From Gemmatimonadota bacterium (GTDB lineage Bacteria; Gemmatimonadota; Gemmatimonadetes; Gemmatimonadales; GWC2-71-9), in assembly GCA_003220855.1 (NCBI GenBank), contig QHTP01000038.1, positions 1 to 44,700 on the forward strand: DNA of 44,700 bases, written 5' to 3'. Both the position numbers and the translations under genes were made by a program. The notes under the pieces are model-generated. The model was not told the origin of the DNA and did no database searches. It saw nothing but the letters and a program-made list of their open reading frames with translations. This document shows positions 4,169 through 44,700 of the stretch, piece after piece. Position 1 is the first letter of the stretch. Every line of letters starts with the position of its first letter.

Positions 4169-5011
4169 ATGGACCAAACGACGGTCGAGCTCAACGGCGT
4201 CCGCATCTACACGCGACGCGTCGGAGACGGCCCGCCAGTCGTGGTGCTGCACGGCGGTCCCGGCGCCCACCACGACTACCTGCTTCCCCAGTACGACCGG
4301 CTCGCGCTGGGCCGCACCCTCCTCTATTACGACCAGCGTGGTGGCGGCCGGTCACCGGTGCCGCGCGATACCCCAGTCGGGTGGCGCGAGCACGTGGCCG
4401 ACCTCGAGGCCCTGCTCGACCACTGGGGCCTCGACCGGGTCACGCTGCTCGGCTACTCCTGGGGCGGCCTGCTCGCGGTGCTCTACACCCTCGAGCATCC
4501 CGCCCGGATCGACCGCCTCACCCTCGTCTCGTCCGCGCCGGTCACGGCGGCGTGGCGCGCCGAGTTCGAGCGCCGACTCGCGGCCCGCATGGCCCAGCCC
4601 TGGCTGGCCCGGGCCCGCGCCGAGCTCACCGCCGCCGGTCTGTCGCGCACCGATCCCGAAAAGTACCGCCGCCTGGCATTCGCGCTATCGGTCGCGGGCT
4701 ATTTCCACGACCCGAGGCGCGCCCGTGAGATGACCCCGTTCCGCGTGACCGCCCGCACCCAGCAGGAGGTGTGGCAGAGCCTGGGAGCCTACGACCTCCG
4801 CGCGCGGCTCAGACGGACCTTCCCGGACGGTGGCGCGCCCCGCTCCCTGCTGCTGCATGGCATCTACGACCCCATGCCCCTGGAATCGGCGCGTGAGACC
4901 GCGGCGCTCCTCTCCACCGGCGTGATCGAGCTCGCCACGGGGCACGCCCCGCACGTCGAGGCCACGGAAGATTTCGTGCGGGCGCTGGACGAGTTCCTGC
5001 CCCGCGCCTGA
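4169..5011 (+). CDS. alpha/beta hydrolase (proline iminopeptidase-like, S33 family)
   Basis: Contains the oxyanion motif VVVLHGGPG, then YYDQRGGGRS and the nucleophile elbow GYSWGG, with a C-terminal His (GHAPHVE). Divergent from the permease across a 30-bp AT-containing spacer (gGTATAAATtg). Confidence 0.85.
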   Translation: MDQTTVELNGVRIYTRRVGDGPPVVVLHGGPGAHHDYLLPQYDRLALGRTLLYYDQRGGGRSPVPRDTPVGWREHVADLEALLDHWGLDRVTLLGYSWGGLLAVLYTLEHPARIDRLTLVSSAPVTAAWRAEFERRLAARMAQPWLARARAELTAAGLSRTDPEKYRRLAFALSVAGYFHDPRRAREMTPFRVTARTQQEVWQSLGAYDLRARLRRTFPDGGAPRSLLLHGIYDPMPLESARETAALLSTGVIELATGHAPHVEATEDFVRALDEFLPRA

Positions 5012-5054
5012 GCGTCGCCCTGAGCGACGCCCTGAGCGACGCCCTGAACGACGA
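5007..5054. repeat. 4 x 12-bp tandem repeat (CCTGAGCG[T/A]CGC), beginning at the hydrolase stop codon
   Basis: The units are cctgagcgtcgc cctgagcgacgc cctgagcgacgc cctgaacgacga. Units 1 and 2 can pair (GCGTCGC/GCGACGC). Each unit carries a TGA in the hydrolase frame. Confidence 0.8.
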
Positions 5055-5809: not shown

Positions 5810-5814
5810 TGAGG

Positions 5815-5884
5815 CGTTGCACGTCGCCCGTTGCACGTTCCACGCAGCGGGTAACCTGTAACGTGGAACGTGGAACGTGGAACG
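5815..5884. repeat. hairpin element made of inverted 7-bp repeat arrays (CGTTSCA x4 / spacer / CGTGGAA x3)
   Basis: Left arm 5815..5844 is cgttgca cgtcgcc cgttgca cgttcca cg. The spacer is 16 nt. Right arm 5861..5884 is a cgtggaa cgtggaa cgtggaa cg. By my count 19 of 23 arm positions are complementary. Same design as the element at 28405..28510. Confidence 0.75.
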
Positions 5885-6953
5885 CACCATGCTCATCGCG
5901 GAGCGGCTCAAGGCCCTGGGCTACAGCGTCACGACCGGCGTGGGCAGGACCGGCGTCGTCGGGCTGCGCGACGGCGCGCGGGGATCGTGCGTGCTGGTCC
6001 GGGCCGACATGGACGCGCTTCCGGTCGAGGAAGCGAACGACGTCCCGTACCGCTCGAAGCATCCGGGCAAGATGCACGCCTGCGGCCACGACGGGCACGT
6101 CGCGATCGGGCTCGAGGTCGCGCGCCGGCTGCACGCGGCGTACCTGCCGGGGCGGGTGAAGTTCGCATTCCAGCCCGCCGAGGAGGTCTCGGACGGGGCG
6201 GAGGCGATGATCCGGGACGGCGTGCTCGACGCGCCCAAGGTGGACGCGGCCTTCGGCATCCACCTGTGGAACGACCTGCCTGCGGGAACCATCTCGGTGA
6301 TGCCGGGCCCGGTGATGGCCTCGGTGGACCAGTTCGAGATAACAATCGTGGGTCGCGGCGGCCACGCCGCGGCCCCGCAGCAGGCGATCGACCCGGTGCT
6401 GATCGCGTCGCACCTGGTGACCGCACTGCAGAGCCTCGTATCGCGGCGCCGCAACCCGTTCGAGGAGGGGGTGGTGTCGGTCACGCAGATCAACGCCGGC
6501 CACGCCTTCAACGTGATCCCCGAGCGGGCCGAACTGCGCGGCACGGTGCGCACGTTCGGCGGCAAGTTCTACGACGAGGCGCCGCATCTGGTTGAAGCGA
6601 CCGCCCACGGCATCGCGGGTACGTTCGGAGCGAGCGCGCAGGTGCGCTACCGGCGGCTGTCCAAGCCCCTGGTGAACGACGCGAAGATGGCGGCCCTGAT
6701 GCACGACGTCGCGCAGGAAATCGTCACGCCGGAGCGTGTGATCGACGGGATCCGGACCATGGGAGGGGAGGACATGTCGTACTTTCTCGCGAGCGTCCCC
6801 GGCGCGTTCGCGTTCGTCGGTTCCGCGCCGCCCGAGCGGAAGGGCGCGCCGCATCACAGTCCCACGTTCGACATCGACGAGGACAGCCTGGTCGTCGGGG
6901 CCGAGCTGGTGACGCGGACGGTGGTGAGGTATCTGGAAACGACCAGTAGGTAG
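5877..6953 (+). CDS. M20D family amidohydrolase (N-acyl-amino acid amidohydrolase/hippurate hydrolase-like), N-terminally short
   Basis: Contains ADMDALPV, HACGHDGH, FQPAEE and HLW..LP.G, the M20D signature order. The GTG 5877 start (or ATG 5889) lies inside or next to the heptad repeat. An in-frame TAA at 5859 blocks any longer N-terminus. Confidence 0.8.
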   Translation: MERTMLIAERLKALGYSVTTGVGRTGVVGLRDGARGSCVLVRADMDALPVEEANDVPYRSKHPGKMHACGHDGHVAIGLEVARRLHAAYLPGRVKFAFQPAEEVSDGAEAMIRDGVLDAPKVDAAFGIHLWNDLPAGTISVMPGPVMASVDQFEITIVGRGGHAAAPQQAIDPVLIASHLVTALQSLVSRRRNPFEEGVVSVTQINAGHAFNVIPERAELRGTVRTFGGKFYDEAPHLVEATAHGIAGTFGASAQVRYRRLSKPLVNDAKMAALMHDVAQEIVTPERVIDGIRTMGGEDMSYFLASVPGAFAFVGSAPPERKGAPHHSPTFDIDEDSLVVGAELVTRTVVRYLETTSR

Positions 6954-6956
6954 ATT
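6951..6956 (+). promoter_or_regulatory. -10-like TAGATT box, 7 nt upstream of ATG 6964; its TAG is the stop codon of the M20 gene
   Basis: aggTAGATTtccctcgATGtcc, near-identical in context to 30823 (tgTAGATTcccgccATGtcc) and 35351 minus (TATATTtccatccATG). Confidence 0.35.
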
Positions 6957-6963
6957 TCCCTCG

Positions 6964-8946
6964 ATGTCCAATCTCCTCGTCTCCGAGCCCTCCGCGTACC
7001 TCAAGTCCGCCGCCCACCAGCCGGTGCACTGGCACCCGTGGGGCGACGCGGCGTTCGCCCGTGCCCGTACAGAAGACAAACCCATCCTGCTCGACATCGG
7101 GGCGGTGTGGTGCCACTGGTGCCACGTCATGGACGGCGAGTCGTACGAGGACGCCCGGGTGGCGGAGCTCCTCAATGCGGACTTCGTGTGCATCAAGGTG
7201 GACCGCGACGAGCGACCGGACGTGGACACGCGCTACCAGCGCGCGGTCCAGGCACTCACCGGACAGGGCGGCTGGCCGCTCACCGCGTTCCTCACGCCGG
7301 AGGGCGAGGTGTTCTACGGCGGCACGTATTTCCCGCCGGAGGAGAACCACTTCGGACGGCCGGGATTCCCGTCGGTGCTGCGGCAGGTAGCGGGCATCTA
7401 CCGCCAGCAGCGCGACAAGGTCGCCGAGAACGCCAGGGCGATCCGCCACCACGTCGCCCAATCGCTCGATGAGGCGCAGGGTGGCGACGTGAGCCCCGCG
7501 ACCCTCGAGCGGGCGGCCGCCGACATGGCGCGCCTGTTCGACATCCGCTACGGCGGATTCGGCACCGCACCCAAGTTCCCCCACCCCGCGGCCGCGCAAT
7601 TCCTGCTGGCTCGCTGGCACGACACGGGTGAGGACTGGGTGCGCGACGTGGTTGAGAAAACGCTTACGGGGATGGCGAAGGGCGGGATCCGCGATCACGT
7701 GGGGGGAGGCTTCCATCGCTATGCGGTGGACGAGCGCTGGATCGTGCCGCACTTCGAGAAGATGGCCTACGACAACTCGGAGCTGCTGCACGCCTACCTC
7801 GACGCCTACGCCGCGCTCGGCACGCCGCTCTTCAAGCAGGTGGCGCGGGGGATCGTGGGCTGGGTGCTCGAGGTCCTGTCGGATCGCCAGCGGGGTGCGT
7901 TTCATACGTCCCAGGACGCGGACGTGGCCTTCGGCGATGACGGGGACTACTGGACGTGGACCGTCGATGAACTGCGAGAGGCGTTGCCGGAGACGGCGTT
8001 TGCGGTTGCCCGCCGGGTGTTCGACGTGGAAGAGCACGGGGAAATGCACCACAACCCGCGCAAGAATGTCCTCTGGTGGAAGAGCGATCCGGCGGGCGAC
8101 GACGAATGGCCGGTGCTCGAGGACGCGCTCGTGAAGCTCAAGGCCGCGCGCGATCGTCGTACGGCCCCGTTCATCGACACGACCCCCTACGTGAACTGGA
8201 ACGCCATGATGGCCTCCGCCTTCCTGCACGCCGGCGCCGTGCTCGACCGGCCGGACTGCAATGCACTCGCGCTCCGCGTGCTGCAGCGAATCTGGGGAGA
8301 GGCCTGGGACGGGGGACGCGGGATGGGGCACGTCATCGCGCGGGCCGAGCCACACGGTCTGCTCGAGGACAACGTGCACGCGGCGGCCGCGTTCCTCGAT
8401 GCGTATGAAGCTACCGGCGACGACGCGTGGCTCACGCGGGCGATCGCGGTGATGCATCACTGCCGCAGGGCGCACTGGGACGACACCAAGGGTGGCTTCT
8501 TCGACGTGGCGCGCGACCGCACAGGCTCGGCGTATCTCGCGACGCCCGCCAAGCCGGTGCAGGACGCGCCGACGCCCTCGGGGAACGGTGTGGCCGCGCT
8601 CGTGCTGGCACGCCTCTCGGCGCTGACCGACGACAGGCAATGGCGGAGCCTGCTCGACCGGCAGCTCGCGACGTTCGGGGGCGCGGCGGCGCAGCTGGCG
8701 TTGTACGGGGCGACGCTGTTCCGCGCCGTCGATTGGACGCTCAATCCCCCCACGCGCATCGAGGTCCAAGGGCCTCGGGGCGAGGGAGCGGCCTGCGACA
8801 TGCACCTACTCGCGCTCCAGACGTACCGCCCGCGCCGGCTCGTGATCCGGAGGACCGCCGAGCGGCCCGCTGCAACAGTCTGCGTGGGCACGACGTGCTC
8901 GCTGCCGGTGCCGACGCCCGAAGCGCTGCGGGCCCTGCTCGGGTGA
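6964..8946 (+). CDS. thioredoxin domain-containing protein (DUF255/YyaL family, N-terminal Trx fold + alpha/alpha-toroid)
   Basis: Contains [40 protein letters not shown]...[15 protein letters not shown], characteristic of DUF255. 660 aa. Confidence 0.85.
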
Positions 8947-24501: not shown

Positions 24502-25958
24502 GCCGTCGCTTCGCAGTCGCTCCCTTCGCGTTGCTCGCCCTCGCCTGCCAGAAGGCGCAGACCGCACCGCTCTACGAGAAGGTCCCCGTCGAGCGCCGCG
24601 ACGTCGTCGTCACGGTGATCAGCCAGGGCCTGATCCGGCCGGTGCTCCTGTTCAGCGTGAAGTCGAAAGCCTGGGGCGAGATCATCAGCCAGCCGGTGGC
24701 GACCGGGGACGAAGTCAAAAAGGGACAGCTGCTCACCACCATCGACCCGCGCCTACCACAAAACAACCTGATCCAGGCGCAGGCCAGCGTCGAGAAGGCC
24801 CACGCGCAGCTCGACAACGCCAAGGCGCAGCTGACGCGGAGCGAGGCCCTGTTCAAGAGCGGGTCGCTCGCCGAGACCGACTACGAGCGGGCCAAGCTCG
24901 CCTTTGCCACGGCCAACGCGGCGGCCGTCGACGCCGAGGCGAATCTGCAGACCGCCAAGGACGCCATGGAGGACACGCACGTGCGGGCGCCCATCACCGG
25001 CACCGTGCTCGAGCTCGACGCCGTGCGCGGCACCGTGATCTCGAGCCCGACGCTGGGCGGCGGCACGGTCATTCTCAAGATGGCGAGCCTCGACAGCGTG
25101 CAAGATTCGGCGCTCGTCGCCGAGACGGATATCGCGCGGGTGCAGCCGGGGATGCCGGCCACCATCAACGTCGACGCCTATCCCAACCGGGCGTTCCAGG
25201 GCACCGTTTCGAAGGTGCTTCCGCAGGGACAAGTCGTACAGAACGTCACCATGTTCCCGGTGCTCATCGCCGTCCCCAACCCCGGCCACCTGCTCAGGCC
25301 GGGTATGAACACCGAGGTGAGGATCCCCACCGGACGGCGGCCGGGCGTGCTGGCCGTGCCCAATGCCGCGCTGCGGACGCCGCGCGACGTCGCCTCCGCA
25401 GCCGGCCTGCTGGGGCTCGATTCGCTCACCGTGGCGCAGCAGATCGCTGCCGGGCAGTCCGCGGACACCGGCGGGCGCACCGGGCGCGACACGGCCGCGG
25501 CCGGCGGGGGCGGCGGGGGCGGCGGCGCGCGGACGGTCACGCTGCCGAACGGGCAGACGGTCACTCTCCCACCCGGTGTGACGCCCCAGCAGGTCCAGGC
25601 GGCCCTCAAGCGGATGCGCAGCGGTGCCGAGCCCACGCCGGCCGACCGCGGGCTGCTCAGCAACGTGTTCGGCCGGGCGCCGAGACCAAAGCTCCGGCAG
25701 CAGCGGCAGACCCGAAACAACCAGAACTACGTCGTGTTCGCGCTGCGGGACGGCAAGGTCGTGGCTGCGCCCATCAAGACCGGGCTCACCGACCAGGATT
25801 ATGTCGAGGTGACGAGCGGGGTGACGGAGCGCGACACCGTGCTGGTGCTGCCGAGCGCCTCGCTGGTGCAGGCGCAGCAGCAGTTCCGCCAGCGGTTCCA
25901 GAACGTGACCGGCGGCGGGCTGCCCGGGCTGCGGCAGCAGAGCGGCGGGTCGAGGTGA
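24498..25958 (+). CDS. efflux periplasmic adaptor (membrane fusion protein, MacA/HlyD-type) lipoprotein, paralogue 1, with Gly-rich insertion
   Basis: GTGA overlap. Lipobox LALAC. Coiled-coil hairpin ([20 protein letters not shown]...[23 protein letters not shown]). Low-complexity insert ..[28 protein letters not shown].. Confidence 0.88.
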
Positions 25959-27186: not shown

Positions 27187-28401
27187 ATGCTCCTGGGCGA
27201 GATCGTCATGGTGGCGCTCGAGGCGCTGCGGGCGAACAAGCTCCGCTCGCTGCTCACTATGCTGGGCATCATCATCGGCGTGGGCGCGGTGATCACGATG
27301 ATCGCGCTCGGCTCGGGGGCGCAGAAGTCCGTCCAGGACCGCATCCAGGCGCTCGGGCCCACGCTGTTGAGCGTGTATCCGGGCCAGAGCTTCATGCGCG
27401 GCGTCGCCAGCGGTAACCGTGTGAGCCTCACCATGGACGACGACACGGCGCTCGCGAACAACGCGCGCTACGTGAGCGCGGTCGTGCCCGAGCTGAGCAA
27501 CAACCTCCAGGTGCAAAAGGGCGACCAGAACATCAACGTGAACGTCGTCGGCACCACGCCGAACTACGTCACCGTCCACAATTACTCGATCACGGCGGGC
27601 CGCATGTTCACCGCGGGCGACGATGCGGCGCGGCGGCGGGTGGCGGTGATCGGCAGCGCCGTCCCGACGCTGCTCAATTCCAACCGCGACGCAATGATCG
27701 GGCAGCAGCTCCTGATCCGCGGCATCACCTTCGAGATCGTCGGCGCCTTGTCCGAAAAGGGCTCGCAGGGCTCGTTCTTCAACCCCGACGAGCAGATCCT
27801 CATCCCGCTGCAGACGGCCCGCTACCGCGTCATCGGGACCGACCGGTTGCGCTCGATCACGGTACAGGCGAACGATCTCGAGTCGATGAACCTCGCCATG
27901 ATCGAGATCGAGCGCGTGCTCCGGCGCCAGCACAAGATCCGGCCAGGCCAGGACGACGACTTCCAGATCCGCAACCAGACCGACATCCTCGCGACGCTGC
28001 AGCAGACCACGGATACGTTCAAGTACCTCCTCGCGGGGATCGCGGCGGTGAGCCTGCTCGTCGGGGGCATCGGCATCATGAACATCATGCTCGTGTCGGT
28101 CACCGAGCGCACCCGCGAGATCGGGGTCCGCAAGGCGTTGGGCGCCACGCGGTTCAACATCATGTTCCAGTTCCTGGTCGAGGCGCTGGTGTTGTGTCTC
28201 TTGGGCGGTCTGATCGGCGTGGTGCTGGGCTCGGGCGGCGCCATCGTGCTGTCGCGGATCGCACACTGGAATACGCTGATTTCCCCGCTCGCCATCCTCC
28301 TCGCCTTCGTGTTCAGCGCCGCGGTGGGGTTGTTCTTCGGCATCTGGCCGGCCCGCCGGGCGGCGAGCCTCGATCCGATCATCGCGTTGAGATACGAATA
28401 G
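27187..28401 (+). CDS. ABC transporter permease, MacB/FtsX-type (4 TM + periplasmic domain)
   Basis: Starts ALRANKLRSLLTMLGIIIGVGAVI, then a large periplasmic segment, then FtsX-like C-terminal TMs with VTERTREIGVRKALGA. Confidence 0.9.
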   Translation: MLLGEIVMVALEALRANKLRSLLTMLGIIIGVGAVITMIALGSGAQKSVQDRIQALGPTLLSVYPGQSFMRGVASGNRVSLTMDDDTALANNARYVSAVVPELSNNLQVQKGDQNINVNVVGTTPNYVTVHNYSITAGRMFTAGDDAARRRVAVIGSAVPTLLNSNRDAMIGQQLLIRGITFEIVGALSEKGSQGSFFNPDEQILIPLQTARYRVIGTDRLRSITVQANDLESMNLAMIEIERVLRRQHKIRPGQDDDFQIRNQTDILATLQQTTDTFKYLLAGIAAVSLLVGGIGIMNIMLVSVTERTREIGVRKALGATRFNIMFQFLVEALVLCLLGGLIGVVLGSGGAIVLSRIAHWNTLISPLAILLAFVFSAAVGLFFGIWPARRAASLDPIIALRYE

Positions 28402-28404
28402 CAT

Positions 28405-28510
28405 GCGGAACTCGGAACGCGGAGCGCGGAACAGCACGACGCGCTGACGATTCGTAGGTCGGGCCCCGACGTCGGCCCGCCTGTTCCGCGTTCCGCATTC
28501 CGCGTTCCGA
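28405..28510. repeat. hairpin element made of inverted 7-bp repeat arrays (GCGGAAC-type x4 / 46-nt centre / GTTCCGC-type x4)
   Basis: Left arm 28405..28434 is gcggaac tcggaac gcggagc gcggaac ag. Right arm 28481..28510 is ct gttccgc gttccgc attccgc gttccga. By my count 26 of 30 positions are complementary. The centre holds the near-palindrome GTCGGGCCCCGAC (28458..28470). Followed by cttgtatcttttcc. Confidence 0.8.
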
Positions 28511-28514
28511 CTTG

Positions 28515-28520
28515 TATCTT
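28515..28520 (+). promoter_or_regulatory. -10-like TATCTT box, 7 nt upstream of ATG 28528
   Basis: tgTATCTTttccgacATG. TANNNT pattern with no Shine-Dalgarno. Confidence 0.25.
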
Positions 28521-28527
28521 TTCCGAC

Positions 28528-30825
28528 ATGCTCGTTCTCCTCCTTGTGCTCCAGGGCGTCGCCACCGATTCCGGTCCCGTCTACAATGGCCTGGCGAAGC
28601 AGCTCGACGCGCGCATCCCGCGCTTCGAGGTCGAGGCGAAGATCGACGGCGTGTTGGACGAGCCGGTGTGGCGCCGGGCTGCCCGCCTCACGGGATTCTC
28701 GGAGTACCGTCCGGTGGACGGGCGCCCCGCGGAGGACTCGACCGAGGTGCTGGTCTGGTACGCGCCCGACGCGATCTACTTCGGCATCCGCGCGTTCGAG
28801 CGGCACGGCAAGGTGGTGCGCGCCACGCTCGCCGACCGCGATAACATCGACGCGGACGACCACGTCGCCATCCTGCTCGATACCTACCTCGACCACCGCC
28901 GCGCCACGATGTTCGCCGTGAATCCTTTGGGTGTGCAGGAGGACGGCGTGTGGAGCGACGGCGTCGCCGCCGGCGCCGCCGGGGGCCCGAGCGCGGGCGG
29001 CAGGTTCGACGCGACCATCGACTTGAACCCGGACTATGTCTACGAATCGCGCGGTCGCGTGACCGACCGGGGCTACGAGGTGGAGGTGCGGATTCCCTTC
29101 AAGAGCCTGCGCTACCAGAGCGCCGATCCCCAGGATTGGGGCATCCAGGTGCTGCGCTCGGTGCAGCACTCGGGCTACGAGGAAACCTGGACCCCCGCGG
29201 TCCGCGCCAACGCGAGCTTTCTCATTCAGTCGGGCCGCCTGGTCGGCCTCGGGGCGCTGCGGCGGGGCCTGGTGCTCGACCTCACGCCCGAGTTCACCAC
29301 CAAGGTGGACGGGGCGCCGACCACGCCGGGCTACGACTATCGCGGCACGCCCGAAGTCGCGGGCAACCTGCGCTGGGGCGTCACACAGAACCTCGGGGCG
29401 ACCGCGACGGCCAACCCGGACTTTTCGCAGGTCGAGGCCGACGTCGGCCAGGTGACGCTGAACCAGCGGTTCGCCCTGTTCTACCCGGAGAAGCGACCCT
29501 TCTTCCTCGAGGGCCTCGAGCAGTTCGACACGCCCAACAGCCTGATTTACACGCGCCGCATCGTGCAGCCCGTGTTCGGCGCCAAGCTCGCCGGCAAGGT
29601 CGGCGGCACCGGAATCGCCTACCTCGGCGCCGTCGACAACAGCGACCAGTCGGCCACGGGCGCGCACCCGATCTACAACATGCTGCGCCTGCGGCGCGAC
29701 CTGGGACCGACGTCCACGCTGGGCGTGGCCTACACCGACCGCACCGACGGCGATGACTACAACCGCGTACTGGGCATCGACGCCCACGTCGTGTGGCGTA
29801 AGATCTGGTTCTCGGAAGTGCAGGTCGCGAGCTCGTGGACTCGTGACCCGGGCGCCGGCCACGCGGGCAAGCTGTGGACCGTCACCTTCGGCGACCGCAC
29901 CGGTCGCGCGTACGGCAACCACTTCGAGCTGCTCGGCATCGAGCGGAGCTTCCAGGACACGAGCGGGTTCGTGAATCGCACCGACGTCGTTGTCGGCCGG
30001 ACCTACAACCGCTTCAGCTGGTACGGCCGCCCGGGAGCGCTGGTCGAGCAGTTCACCGCCATCGTCGGATTCGCCCCCATCTGGCGCTACGCGGACTTCG
30101 GCCGCTTGCACCGCACGATCGAAGACACGCTGCAGAGCTTCTTCGTGGCGAACCTGCGCGGCGGGTGGCAGGCGCAGGTCACGCTCACCCTCGACCACTT
30201 CGGCTTCGATGCCGCGGACTACGCGGGCTACATGGTCGGCGCCGTTCCCTTCGCCGTCCCGCACGACCTGTATCACCTCCCCGGCGCGGCGTTCATCGTG
30301 AGCACACCGAACCGGGCCGTGTCGGGCAGCGTGGTGGTGGGTTATTCGGCGGCGGCCATCTTTCCCGAGGCATCCGAAGGGCGCCAGGTCGCCGTGACCA
30401 CCGTCGCCGCCCTGCGCCCGACGCCCGCGCTCCGGCTCGAGGCACGCTGGGTGCACCAGCGCCTCACCCGCGCGCGCGACGGCAGCCGCTTTCTGACGGC
30501 GAACATCCCGCGGCTGAAGCTCGAGTACCAGCTCACGCGCGCCATTTTCGTGCGCTACATCGGCCAGTACTTCGCGGAGGATCAGGTCGCGCTCGTCGAC
30601 CCGCATACGGGGCAGCCGCTGCTCGTGAACGGCAGTGCGGCGCCACCGGTGGTCACGAACGATTTCCGCAACGACGTCCTGTTTTCCTACAAGCCGACGC
30701 CGGGCACGGTGGTCTTTCTCGGCTACGGCGCGTCGCTCACCGAGGCGGACGCGTTCCGGTTCCGCGACCTGAGCCGCACCGGGGACGGGTTCTTCCTCAA
30801 GCTGAGTTATCTGTTCCGGATGTAG
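28528..30825 (+). CDS. CBM9-like / DUF5916 domain-containing (predicted outer-membrane) protein
   Basis: Reads IPRFEVEAKIDGVLDEPVWRRAARLTGFSEYRPVDGRPAEDSTEVLVWYAPDAIYFGIRAF...DDHVAILLDTYLDHRRATMFAVNPLGVQEDG, then a long beta-rich C-terminal region ending FFLKLSYLFRM. Confidence 0.75.
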   Translation: MLVLLLVLQGVATDSGPVYNGLAKQLDARIPRFEVEAKIDGVLDEPVWRRAARLTGFSEYRPVDGRPAEDSTEVLVWYAPDAIYFGIRAFERHGKVVRATLADRDNIDADDHVAILLDTYLDHRRATMFAVNPLGVQEDGVWSDGVAAGAAGGPSAGGRFDATIDLNPDYVYESRGRVTDRGYEVEVRIPFKSLRYQSADPQDWGIQVLRSVQHSGYEETWTPAVRANASFLIQSGRLVGLGALRRGLVLDLTPEFTTKVDGAPTTPGYDYRGTPEVAGNLRWGVTQNLGATATANPDFSQVEADVGQVTLNQRFALFYPEKRPFFLEGLEQFDTPNSLIYTRRIVQPVFGAKLAGKVGGTGIAYLGAVDNSDQSATGAHPIYNMLRLRRDLGPTSTLGVAYTDRTDGDDYNRVLGIDAHVVWRKIWFSEVQVASSWTRDPGAGHAGKLWTVTFGDRTGRAYGNHFELLGIERSFQDTSGFVNRTDVVVGRTYNRFSWYGRPGALVEQFTAIVGFAPIWRYADFGRLHRTIEDTLQSFFVANLRGGWQAQVTLTLDHFGFDAADYAGYMVGAVPFAVPHDLYHLPGAAFIVSTPNRAVSGSVVVGYSAAAIFPEASEGRQVAVTTVAALRPTPALRLEARWVHQRLTRARDGSRFLTANIPRLKLEYQLTRAIFVRYIGQYFAEDQVALVDPHTGQPLLVNGSAAPPVVTNDFRNDVLFSYKPTPGTVVFLGYGASLTEADAFRFRDLSRTGDGFFLKLSYLFRM

Positions 30826-33447: not shown

Positions 33448-34802
33448 TACGCGAGCCTCGCCAGGCGATGCAGTTCGGCGGCGGCCCGATCGGCCTCGCG
33501 CACGATGTGGTCGACCGGCGCCGTCAGGAGCTCGTGTCCGAGCACGACCGGGCGTCCCTCGACGAACACGTCCCGGACGTCGCTTGCGCGGGCCGAGTAC
33601 ACGATGCGCGAGACCGGGTCGCCCAACAGCGGATGGAGGTGCGGCTCGGACAGGTCCAGCACCACCAGATCGGCCCGCCTCCCGGGTGCGATGCGGCCGA
33701 TCTCGTCCTCGAGCCCGAGGGCGCGGGCGCCACCCAGCGTCGCGAGCTCGAGCACCTGAGCGGCGGGGAGCGCGCCGGCGCCGAGGCGTGGCTTCTGGAT
33801 CAGGGCGGCGAGGCGCATTTCGGCGAAGGCATCGAGCCCGTTGTTGCAGGGGGCGCCATCGGCACCGATGGCCACGTGGCACCCGGCGGCGAGCATCTCG
33901 GGGATCTTCGCCACTCCGCTCGCGAGTTTCAAGTTCGAGGAGGGACAGTGCACCACCGTGGTTCCCTGACGAGCCAGGCGATCCATCTCGTGCGTGTCGA
34001 TCCAGACGCAGTGCGCGAGGGCTGCCCGTCGGCCCGCGATACCGACCGAGTCCAGGTAGGCGATCTCTTCGAGGCCCGTGGTCCGAAGCACCGTCTCGCG
34101 CTCCACGATCGTTTCCGCCGCGTGGGTGTGCAGCTGCGCGTCGAACCGCTCCGCCAGATCACTCGCCGCGCGGAGCAAGGGACCCGAGCAGCTCGGGACG
34201 AACCGGGGGGCGAAACAGACGCGTAGCCGGCCCTCGGCGGACCCATGCCAGCGCTGGGCCAGCGCCGCGGCGTCCGTCAGCGCGTCGTCAGTCGACTCGG
34301 CGAGGTCGCTCGGCGCGCCCTCGGGGTGCACGTCCATCAGGCACTTGCCGACCGTCGCGCGGATGCCGATCCGCTCCAGCGCGCGGAACGCCGCCCCCGT
34401 GTGGCGTACCGTCTCCATGTCGAGGATCGCCGTGGTGCCGCCGAGCAGCAGCTCCGCGGCGCCGAGCAGGGCGGAGGCATACACCGTTTCTTCCGTGTGT
34501 GCGGCCTCGAGCGGCCAGATGCGGCGCACCAACCAGTCCTCGAGCGGCAGGTCGTCGGCGAGCCCGCGGAACAACGTCTGGCAGAGATGCACGTGGGCCT
34601 GGATGAGACCGGGCATGACGAGGCAGCCGCGACAATCACGGACCTGGGCCTCGGGGCGGAGCCCTTTCCCCTTTTCCGCTTCGCCATTCCCCTTCCCGAC
34701 CTGCACGATGCGTCCCTCGCGGACCGTCACGTCCGCCCGCATCACGCGCCAGGTGCCGTCGTGCAGCAGCACCTCGCCGCCGGCGAGCCGCAAGTCGGGC
34801 AT
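33447..34802 (-). CDS. amidohydrolase, MtaD/ATZ-TRZ family (5-methylthioadenosine/S-adenosylhomocysteine deaminase-like)
   Basis: Contains PGLIQAHVHLCQTLFRGLADDLPLEDWL..IWPLE, HTHAAE, HCV, and VAIGADGAPCNN (metal-ligand Asp region). Confidence 0.82.
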   Translation of the reverse strand: MPDLRLAGGEVLLHDGTWRVMRADVTVREGRIVQVGKGNGEAEKGKGLRPEAQVRDCRGCLVMPGLIQAHVHLCQTLFRGLADDLPLEDWLVRRIWPLEAAHTEETVYASALLGAAELLLGGTTAILDMETVRHTGAAFRALERIGIRATVGKCLMDVHPEGAPSDLAESTDDALTDAAALAQRWHGSAEGRLRVCFAPRFVPSCSGPLLRAASDLAERFDAQLHTHAAETIVERETVLRTTGLEEIAYLDSVGIAGRRAALAHCVWIDTHEMDRLARQGTTVVHCPSSNLKLASGVAKIPEMLAAGCHVAIGADGAPCNNGLDAFAEMRLAALIQKPRLGAGALPAAQVLELATLGGARALGLEDEIGRIAPGRRADLVVLDLSEPHLHPLLGDPVSRIVYSARASDVRDVFVEGRPVVLGHELLTAPVDHIVREADRAAAELHRLARLA

Positions 34803-35338: not shown

Positions 35339-35345
35339 GGATGGA

Positions 35346-35351
35346 AATATA
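35346..35351 (-). promoter_or_regulatory. -10-like TATATT box, 7 nt upstream of ATG 35338 (minus strand)
   Basis: The minus strand reads ggtggaaTATATTtccatccATG; compare TAGATTtccctcgATG at 6951. Confidence 0.35.
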
Positions 35352-44400: not shown

Positions 44401-44700
44401 CTACGACGGCGGCCCGGTTTCGCTCGGACTCCCCCCCGTGAGCGAAGTCACCAGCTTCATGGAGTAGAACAAGGCGCGGCCGCCGAGACTCTCGAGCTCG
44501 TGACGCTCCTCCTTCGAAATGAGATTCATCGCGCATCCCACCTCGAGGTAAAACGAGATCTCGGAGAGCGCGGCGAGCGTCCGATCGACGCATGACGCGA
44601 ACATCCGGCGATTTTGGAAACCCGATCCGCGCGCGACGCGGCTCGAGGCGCATAGGGCGGCGGTCCACAGTTGCGCGGCGAGCGTCGCGTCCCGCTCTTC
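44401..44700 (-). CDS. four-helix-bundle protein (23S rRNA-intervening-sequence-protein family), partial (N-terminus beyond right edge)
   Basis: The reverse frame is open from 44700: EERDATLAAQLWTAALCASSRVARGSGFQNRRMFASCVDRTLAALSEISFYLEVGCAMNLISKEERHELESLGGRALFYSMKLVTSL.. This matches the QL.RA..S...N.AEG..R...F..A.GS..E....L pattern loosely. The track lists only the internal Met (44604). Confidence 0.55.
   Translation of the reverse strand, partial: EERDATLAAQLWTAALCASSRVARGSGFQNRRMFASCVDRTLAALSEISFYLEVGCAMNLISKEERHELESLGGRALFYSMKLVTSLTGGSPSETGPPS

Follow-up and report, generated by a model that had tools for sequence, protein, structure and literature searches.

An inverted heptamer-array hairpin with replaceable units at the end of an efflux operon in Gemmatimonadales

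Long simple repeats in many bacterial genomes are most often heptamers, according to Mrazek et al. 2007 as cited in two later studies (PMC4679880, PMC4692102). Here we analyse a hairpin built from inverted heptamer arrays in a stretch of 44,700 nucleotides (nt) from a Gemmatimonadota bacterium (contig QHTP01000038.1, positions 1 to 44,700 of the forward strand, referred to as the window). The element lies between the last gene of an efflux cluster, which encodes a MacB-type permease, and a gene encoding a DUF5916 protein. It is one allele of a conserved, structured spacer and belongs to the inverted heptamer-array hairpins, which are abundant in Gemmatimonadales, occur in other phyla as well and are of a kind that has already been described.

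In Xanthomonas, one case of heptamer over-representation, ~186 GGGAATC arrays, mostly of four units, and 70–75 inverted pairs per genome have been reported (Rehm et al. 2015, PMC4692102); they are mostly located between aligned open reading frames (ORFs), and between two species their context is kept with length and sequence changed (PMC4692102). The 23S intervening sequence of Coxiella burnetii has a 28-bp stem of terminal inverted repeats that is cut by RNase III, and an S23p ORF (Warrier et al. 2016, PMC4990558). Beside this stem it carries tandem GACAGAT heptamers, two in some strains and three in others, and it has been called a selfish element (PMC4990558). The TAACTGA heptamers of Beggiatoaceae, Cyanobacteria and Bacteroidetes are almost all direct repeats and often end just before start codons (MacGregor 2015, PMC4679880), with one inverted set among the 170 TAACTGA sets of a Beggiatoaceae genome (PMC4679880).

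A preliminary description of the window element, made from its sequence, had considered it not assignable to a known family, yet a described kind exists in the Xanthomonas pairs (PMC4692102) and the S23p heptamers of Coxiella (PMC4990558). The features that characterise the Xanthomonas type are found here, namely intergenic tandem units of 7 nt (about four), a close inverted pair and a context that is kept with variation in length and sequence; the G3 tract, a feature of the Xanthomonas/Nostoc subfamily only, is absent. The element also has a predicted stem like the ~28-bp terminal-repeat stem of the S23p cassettes, and lacks the PF05635 ORF that these carry in the loop.

The element is made up of two arrays and a centre, followed by a T-rich box:

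28405–28434, unstranded: 5′ arm, purine-rich, four heptads and then AG (sequence, Tandem Repeats Finder and inverted-repeat search).
28435–28480, unstranded: centre (loop) of 46 nt, folding into two small sub-hairpins and, outside the loop box, not conserved between alleles or loci.
28444–28458, + strand: loop box CTGACGATTCGTAGG, an imperfect dyad (ACGA-T-TCGT) and the only spacer block conserved across alleles.
28459–28471, unstranded: near-palindrome GTCGGGCCCCGAC, seen in sequence and fold as the second sub-hairpin of the loop and specific to the window allele.
28481–28509, unstranded: 3′ arm, pyrimidine-rich, CT and then GTTCCGC GTTCCGC ATTCCGC GTTCCG, 90% complementary to the 5′ arm.
28515–28521, + strand: T-rich box TATCTTT, 6 nt upstream of the DUF5916 ATG, with a similar box after the 3′ arm in the alleles inspected.

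The first array (GCGGAAC TCGGAAC GCGGAGC GCGGAAC, 28405–28432) runs head-to-tail after the permease stop codon TAG (28399–28401) and the three letters cat, and the second (GTTCCGC GTTCCGC ATTCCGC GTTCCG(A), 28483–28509) is followed 18 nt further by the DUF5916 ATG at 28528. Tandem Repeats Finder assigns period 7 to both, with 4.0 copies at 80% matches and 3.9 copies at 90% matches respectively. An inverted-repeat search returns arms of 29 nt (28406–28434 and 28481–28509) that are 90% complementary and 46 nt apart, in agreement with the 26 of 30 complementary positions counted in the preliminary description, and re-reading the sequence bears out its heptad arrays and its near-palindrome gtcgggccccgac (28459–28471), with a centre of 46–48 nt. 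Each arm is a direct heptad array without self-complementarity, the GCGGAAC unit contains no GGG run and the 46-nt loop holds no ORF. The whole element forms an imperfect palindrome of ~105 bp with a predicted stem of ~29–33 bp. Folding supports a hairpin beyond chance, with z-scores of about −5 on either strand: the + strand RNA reaches −70.1 kcal/mol (z = −5.3, none of 200 shuffles as good), the − strand RNA −71.0 kcal/mol (z = −4.7), and the single-stranded DNA fold has z = −5.1.

The junction between permease and DUF5916 gene is conserved in relatives. Among eighty metagenome loci with a DUF5916 orthologue (56–100% identity), the permease lies upstream in 64, which yield 61 distinct spacers. 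All 61 (DUF5916 identity ~60–100%) fold into a long hairpin of inverted heptad arrays, and conservation at this site in related genomes, which had been proposed as a check, is seen in 61 alleles. The spacers have a median length of 124 nt (range 87–168), and none carries an ORF. Measured without gaps, their arms have a median of 24 nt and pair with 93% complementarity. Self-identity of the arms at period 7 is 0.84, compared with 0.30 for periods 5, 6, 8 and 9, and the purine fraction of the 5′ arm averages 0.69 and is never below 0.4. Where DUF5916 is preceded by another gene there is no hairpin, with the exception of the hybrid cassette of contig L155, and the hairpin is thus tied to the end of the upstream operon.

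What changes at this junction is the unit itself. There are at least 12 consensus heptad units across the alleles, including GCGGAAC, GCGGATT, GCGGAGT/GCGGAAT, GGTGCGY, GCGGGAT, GGGAGAA, GTGCGGC, GCGGGAA and GTGGGGA; the DUF5916 tree shows these unit types dispersed, with different units in sister sequences. For example, contigs L162 and L164 are 97.4% identical over 6.4 kb with the cassette as the sole low-identity segment, and the same is seen for L142 and L140 and for L184 and L189 (95–97% identical contigs). The divergence between alleles begins directly after the stop codon and stops directly before the ATG. In an alignment of 29 alleles, 13 of the 16 pairs of the consensus stem are changed on both sides and 90.2% of the stem cells are paired, compared with 72.7% in shuffles (0 of 500 as high), whereas 31–57% pair when the partners are slid by 1–3 columns. 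Ten contigs from different soil samples (the same population) have an identical element except for one C-to-T change, and are uninformative for covariation because they differ by this single change only.

Since period, pairing, polarity and size are constant while the unit is replaced, the stem rather than its sequence appears to be what matters. The same observation disfavours the iterated protein-binding sites envisaged in the preliminary description, as the unit is replaced wholesale between close relatives and everything but the unit (pairing, period, polarity and size) stays.

Our best explanation, held with middling confidence, is that the element forms a structural stem of double-stranded RNA where the efflux operon ends, and that this stem works as a terminator, a processing site or a stability barrier. 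Slippage would maintain it, combined with correction of one arm from the other or with selection for pairing. The spacer would be transcribed at the operon end and its arrays would pair into an RNA stem of ~29–33 bp. Such a stem would serve as punctuation, most likely as a 3′-end or terminator hairpin, or else as an RNase III-type processing site or a block to exonucleases, and would separate the operon message from the DUF5916 gene, itself putatively started from its own TAnnTTT box as a leaderless mRNA. Period 7 would then reflect how the stem is made and maintained, and not its function: whole heptads would be gained and lost through replication slippage, complementarity would be kept by selection for pairing, by arm-to-arm copying (template switching in the palindrome or gene conversion) or by both, and the unit could thereby be replaced with the function intact. 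The function of the stem is in all these respects inferred from sequence and its comparison.

The gain and loss of whole heptads by slippage is directly visible in how far the loop box lies from the stop codon: 22, 29, 36, 43 or 50 nt, in whole-heptad steps (41–44 nt in most alleles). Alleles of the same type in distant lineages resemble each other closely, their arms being nearly identical and their loops alignable (the window and L164, for instance, with DUF5916 proteins ~68% identical), and the loops of different unit types within one lineage cannot be aligned. Likeness within types would fit old allele classes moved by recombination at least as well as rapid change in place. The L155 cassette (2700–2970) is a hybrid, with a left arm of GCGGAAC type, a right arm of GCGGAAT type, a flipped loop box and another gene upstream, as though two allele classes had recombined within the loop.

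This variability could also be taken as that of a contingency (phase-variable) locus, at which changes in copy number or replacement of alleles in the arrays beside the promoter tune or switch expression of the DUF5916 gene, whose product is of outer-membrane type, and many alleles persist in the population under diversifying selection. The whole-heptad differences between alleles, the cassette as the only hypervariable segment in 95–97% identical contigs, the scatter of unit types over the DUF5916 tree and the L155 hybrid are in keeping with this, but the ten contigs of one population carry the same allele, save the one change, with no variation in copy number. In addition, the 3′ arm stands at a constant distance from the T-rich box and ATG, so that slippage would leave the promoter spacing unchanged, and the homologous loops shared by same-type alleles across deep lineages suggest old alleles and not rapid switching. 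We consider phase variation decidedly improbable.

Within the otherwise divergent spacers, the loop box CTGACGRTTCGTAGG (15 nt, an imperfect dyad) is the only conserved block, whatever the arm unit. It is inverted in six alleles (L157–L159, L163 and L198 among them, one clade) with the arm polarity unchanged. Among the loci compared it is confined to the DUF5916 junction, except that its 10-nt core recurs in one other loop (L035:3386–3395), that of a Gemmatimonadota hairpin unrelated to this one, and it was accordingly rejected as a family-wide feature.

The T-rich box directly 3′ of the 3′ arm reads TAnnTTT in most alleles and lies 5–6 nt upstream of the ATG. Of the five TAnnTTT boxes in the window, three precede the start of a long ORF, an ATG in each case, by exactly 6 nt (28515–28521 and 6951–6957 on the + strand, 35345–35351 on the − strand), and in the related loci (0.97 Mb) 42 of 81 boxes have an ATG 5–6 nt downstream, these 42 representing about six independent genes. 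A spacing of 5–6 nt is that expected for a −10 box ahead of a leaderless mRNA, and we infer that TATCTTT is a −10-like box of a leaderless transcript. Eight of the 12 nt after the window stem are T, and in the alleles inspected the arm runs into a T-rich tail; TATCTTT could serve as the U-tract after the stem.

The proximity of arm and box makes a site acting at the DNA level conceivable, in which the arrays, the dyad loop box or both are bound by a regulator of the DUF5916 promoter, or in which the palindrome is extruded as a cruciform. The 3′ arm lies directly against the TAnnTTT box and over the would-be −35 position, the dyad-like 15-nt loop box is conserved in either orientation, same-type arms are nearly identical across distant lineages, and pairing shows no strand bias. 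A precedent is the omega repressor of plasmid pSM19035, a ribbon-helix-helix protein that binds contiguous arrays of 7-bp units, both direct and inverted; the arrays here are, however, ~50 bp apart, unlike contiguous omega-type operators. A protein that binds them would need to change its specificity as fast as the unit, which differs between 95–97% identical genomes, and there are hundreds of arrays with other units at unrelated loci and in unrelated phyla. A DNA-level site is therefore improbable, if somewhat less so than phase variation.

Several observations weigh against the structural RNA stem that we favour. Transcription, termination and cleavage at the element are predictions, as is the role of the stem. 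Across alleles, 32 favour the plus strand and 28 the minus strand, and G-U and A-C cells are about equally common in the stem; because the strands fold equally there is no sign of selection on the RNA of one strand, and a palindrome kept as DNA would look alike, although nearly all pairs are Watson-Crick, which makes the strand comparison uninformative on an RNA role. A scan for rho-independent terminators calls nothing at the element, where the stem encloses a 46-nt centre, as its loop is far larger than those of classical terminators. Nor can the hairpins all be strong terminators, since some are located inside operons (L034) or abut start codons (the second element of the window, 4 nt). The near-identity of same-type arms in lineages whose DUF5916 proteins are ~68% identical (the window and L164) hints at sequence-specific constraint or exchange, which selection on structure alone does not predict, and the conserved loop box is not explained by a stem.

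Hairpins of this type extend well beyond the junction. A scan of one genome per species (GTDB) for three perfect GGAACGY units gave at least 118 loci, 42 of them in Gemmatimonadota, a strong enrichment; the remaining matches listed fall in Acidobacteriota, Planctomycetota (Gemmata), Verrucomicrobiota, Chloroflexota, Bacteroidota, candidate-phyla-radiation bacteria and a few others. Among the matches listed, an inverted partner array lies within 130 nt at 45 of 123 sites, with 25 of 44 (57%) in Gemmatimonadota and 20 of 79 elsewhere, and where arm order is concerned the purine-rich arm comes first in 29 of these pairs and the pyrimidine-rich arm in 13. The loops of the 45 listed hairpins, which stand at different loci, are all different. 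By rough gene calls from third-position GC content, ~16 of the Gemmatimonadota copies among the matches listed lie between co-directional genes, 1–4 between convergent and 1 between divergent genes, with the genes ~100–130 nt apart. One hairpin of the family (L034:2850–2950) is located between genes that we take to be rplB and rpsS, from their N-terminal sequences as read by eye, within what ought to form one operon. The preliminary description had anticipated a repeat family and not a one-off, which these copies confirm; together with the kept position in relatives they also uphold its view that this is neither an ordinary terminator nor a chance hairpin.

A number of known identities have been considered for this family and set aside. 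REP units of proteobacteria are imperfect palindromes of 20–40 nt, and REPIN spacers are conserved within a family. REP and REPIN are ruled out here, as there is no palindromic unit and no conserved doublet spacer (45 listed hairpins, all loops different), and a MITE, or mobility of the whole cassette, is ruled out by the locus-unique loops and by the absence of a target-site duplication, the flanks of the window element being cat and cttg. The suggestion of a REP- or MITE-like element consequently fails on arms that are not self-palindromic, loops that differ between loci and missing target-site duplications. Promoters for an ECF sigma factor, with GGAAC as the −35 element and the ECF sigma gene at the head of the cluster in mind, are ruled out by the absence of GGAAC from most alleles. 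An array of Chi sites, with a purine-first polarity presenting Chi to RecBCD from a break in the loop, was dropped since the units have no common core, and a phage feature is ruled out by viral contigs holding 9 matches only. That each genome has one unit is ruled out by other units on the same contigs: arrays of GACGTCT/GTCAGAC lie at L165:8847–8867 and L170:7026–7053, on contigs that share the hairpin of the DUF5916 site. Rfam gives no match anywhere in the window at gathering threshold, in agreement with the preliminary description, and at relaxed threshold only generic hairpin matches to microRNA precursors (24 bits against a threshold of 137). The literature searched contained no mention of GCGGAAC/GTTCCGC heptads, or of four-helix-bundle proteins together with heptamers.

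An integron attC-like recombination site, a structured imperfect palindrome right after a stop codon with ends of the form ...AAC / GTT..., deserves separate mention, since position, size, conservation of structure and not sequence, and the AAC...GTT polarity of the window allele all recall one. attC sites span 57–141 bp, with RYYYAAC (R″) and GTTRRRY (R′) as core sites. GCGGAAC departs from this consensus at the YYY positions and GTTCCGC at the RRR positions, AAC and GTT are missing altogether from most other alleles (GCGGATT, GGGAGAA), and the flanking genes are syntenic core genes and not cassettes. No integrase occurs among the window genes looked at, although not all window ORFs were scanned for one. 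The failed consensus effectively refutes an attC site, to which we give almost no credence.

PF05635 genes, which encode the four-helix-bundle S23p protein, are associated with inverted arrays of this kind. In Gemmatimonadota contig L033 (2265–2783), a PF05635 gene (23S_rRNA_IVP, TIGR02436) lies exactly between GTTCCGC and GCGGAAC arrays. When all PF05635 genes in the loci analysed were inspected, along with seven found via homologues, giving 13 independent copies, 10 of the 13 lay between inverted short-period arrays with a locus-specific unit, in Gemmatimonadota, Acidobacteriota, Bacteroidia, Kiritimatiellae and others:

L033: unit GCGGAAC.
L213: unit GAGGAAC.
L214: unit TCGGAAC.
L115 (3093–3735): unit GTGGAAC / GTGAAAC.
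L068 (410–1050): unit GTGAGAA.
L215 and L231/232: unit TTGAGAC.
L216: unit GTTGAAA.
L217–219: unit GTTYAAA.
L229/230: unit GGTCTGAT, an octamer.

The L049 gene has an array on one side only. L033, L213 and L214 share their gene context and differ in unit, which echoes the pattern at the DUF5916 site, and several of the cassettes are wedged in tight spacers of conserved clusters, for example between suf genes. The window has a PF05635 gene fragment of its own (44404–44700, − strand), cut by the window end; neither this fragment nor its orthologue in L161 (8902–9405) has adjoining heptad arrays. The PF05635 homologues are mostly found on very short contigs (1–3 kb), as expected if flanking arrays break short-read assemblies.

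Given this association, the window element may plausibly be a relative of the PF05635 cassettes that lacks the ORF. By its likeness to the intervening sequence, the window stem may be a substrate of RNase III. Taken further, inverted arrays of 7 nt (occasionally 8 nt) would be the terminal repeats of a widespread, undescribed class of operon-spacer cassettes, full-size with a PF05635 gene, with rRNA intervening sequences as a special case and the window element as an ORF-less member, all sharing ~30 bp of double-stranded RNA cut by RNase III and arms rewritten in concert, possibly in dependence on the four-helix-bundle protein; we put this forward as a tentative proposal, less probable than the stem at the operon end. 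If true, the PF05635 link (10 of 13 copies) joins heptamer repeats, the function of the S23p protein and the origin of rRNA intervening sequences, and it may matter more than the junction finding itself.

The same association opens a more sceptical account, in which the element is a selfish or neutral by-product, an ORF-less member or relic of the PF05635 cassettes that persists because it is harmless in a transcribed spacer. Besides the 10 of 13 copies within inverted short-period arrays, some wedged in suf-type spacers, and the window's own PF05635 fragment, the description of the Coxiella intervening sequence as selfish (PMC4990558) speaks for it. Neutrality is hard to square with size, polarity, loop box and pairing kept across ~40% protein divergence. 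Furthermore, no junction allele carries an ORF, most PF05635 cassettes have the GTT arm first and not the AAC or purine-rich arm as at the junction, and there is no signature of mobility, neither a target-site duplication nor loops shared between loci. A selfish relic is thus unlikely in our view, though it is the strongest of the alternatives to a functional stem.

The genes that flank the element are as follows:

27187–28401, + strand: MacB-type efflux permease (MacB_PCD and FtsX), last gene of the cluster, with its stop codon 3 nt before the element (Pfam matches and gene order).
28528–30825, + strand: DUF5916 gene, with start codon and N-terminus conserved in orthologues (domain matches and orthologue comparison).

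The permease ends a cluster made up of an ECF sigma factor, two small ORFs, an outer-membrane efflux protein, an ABC ATPase, two HlyD-type adaptors and the permease. The named orthologues all come from metagenome-assembled genomes of Gemmatimonadales from soil, and an exact-protein lookup gave no record identical to the window DUF5916 protein.

The window contains a second element:

5814–5884, unstranded: inverted arrays in the spacer that separates nth (endonuclease III) from the M20 amidohydrolase gene; the pyrimidine-rich arm comes first, and the element ends 4 nt before the ATG.

Its right arm (5860–5884) consists of 3.6 perfect AACGTGG units and its left arm (5814–5844) is a degenerate mirror (GTTGCAC GTCGCCC GTTGCAC GTTCCAC), with 83% complementarity over 23 nt and a fold of z = −4.9. 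It is less regular than the first, and orthologues of its site carry hairpins with other units. The preliminary description had rightly recognised inverted arrays here; its statement that the two elements have the same architecture does not hold, since the arm order is opposite. It had also noted short N-termini in both downstream genes, which is true of M20 and not of DUF5916, whose start is conserved in all orthologues. The window M20 gene (start 5889–5895) lacks 96 nt (32 codons) that all orthologues have, and is short because of this in-frame deletion directly after the ATG; the missing segment includes the conserved RRDLHQHPELGFEE. The window M20 gene may be inactive, or the assembly may have collapsed at the deletion.

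Other repeats in the window include weak period-7 arrays at 8306–8332 and 34662–34694 (GGGACGG × 3.9 and CCCTTTC × 4.7, at 65% matches, Tandem Repeats Finder). Close to where the nth ORF region starts there is a 12-nt tandem unit CCTGAGCGACGC (× 3.9, 5007–5053), and the first HlyD-type gene contains a 32-nt tandem unit (× 2.2, 24998–25066); these two are probably coding-sequence repeats.

One spacer in 61 allelic forms offers an unusually clean natural experiment on heptamer repeats, which are over-represented in bacteria. The junction finding is more than a terminator and adds to the known inverted heptamer-array hairpins.

When the window-type hairpins are set beside the described systems, REP, BIME and REPIN elements are alike in being extragenic, transcribed, mostly between co-directional or convergent genes, dispersed and lineage-specific, with stable stem-loops and variants swapped in orthologous spacers; they differ in that the window-type arms are direct-repeat arrays that pair only with each other, and the loops are locus-unique. 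The TAACTGA and cyanobacterial STRR heptamers are likewise intergenic and often end a few nt before start codons that lack a canonical ribosome-binding site (4 nt before the ATG in the second window element), but nearly all of them are direct, with one dominant unit per genome. In Coxiella, the S23p intervening sequence has a similar terminal-repeat stem of ~28 bp and tandem heptamers whose copy number differs between strains; it has an ORF in its loop and is located in helix 25 or 45 of 23S rRNA, whereas the window element is ORF-less and located in an mRNA spacer.

The Xanthomonas GGGAATC arrays share with the window element intergenic heptamers of ~4 units, co-directional genes and close inverted pairs, and were described without a function. 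They differ in unit and phylum and in their G3 tracts, of which the window element has none, and a G-quadruplex reading is for this reason inapplicable to it. The replacement of the unit in both arms at one site, the loop box and the fixed arm polarity are seen at the Gemmatimonadales junction and are unreported for Xanthomonas (PMC4692102).

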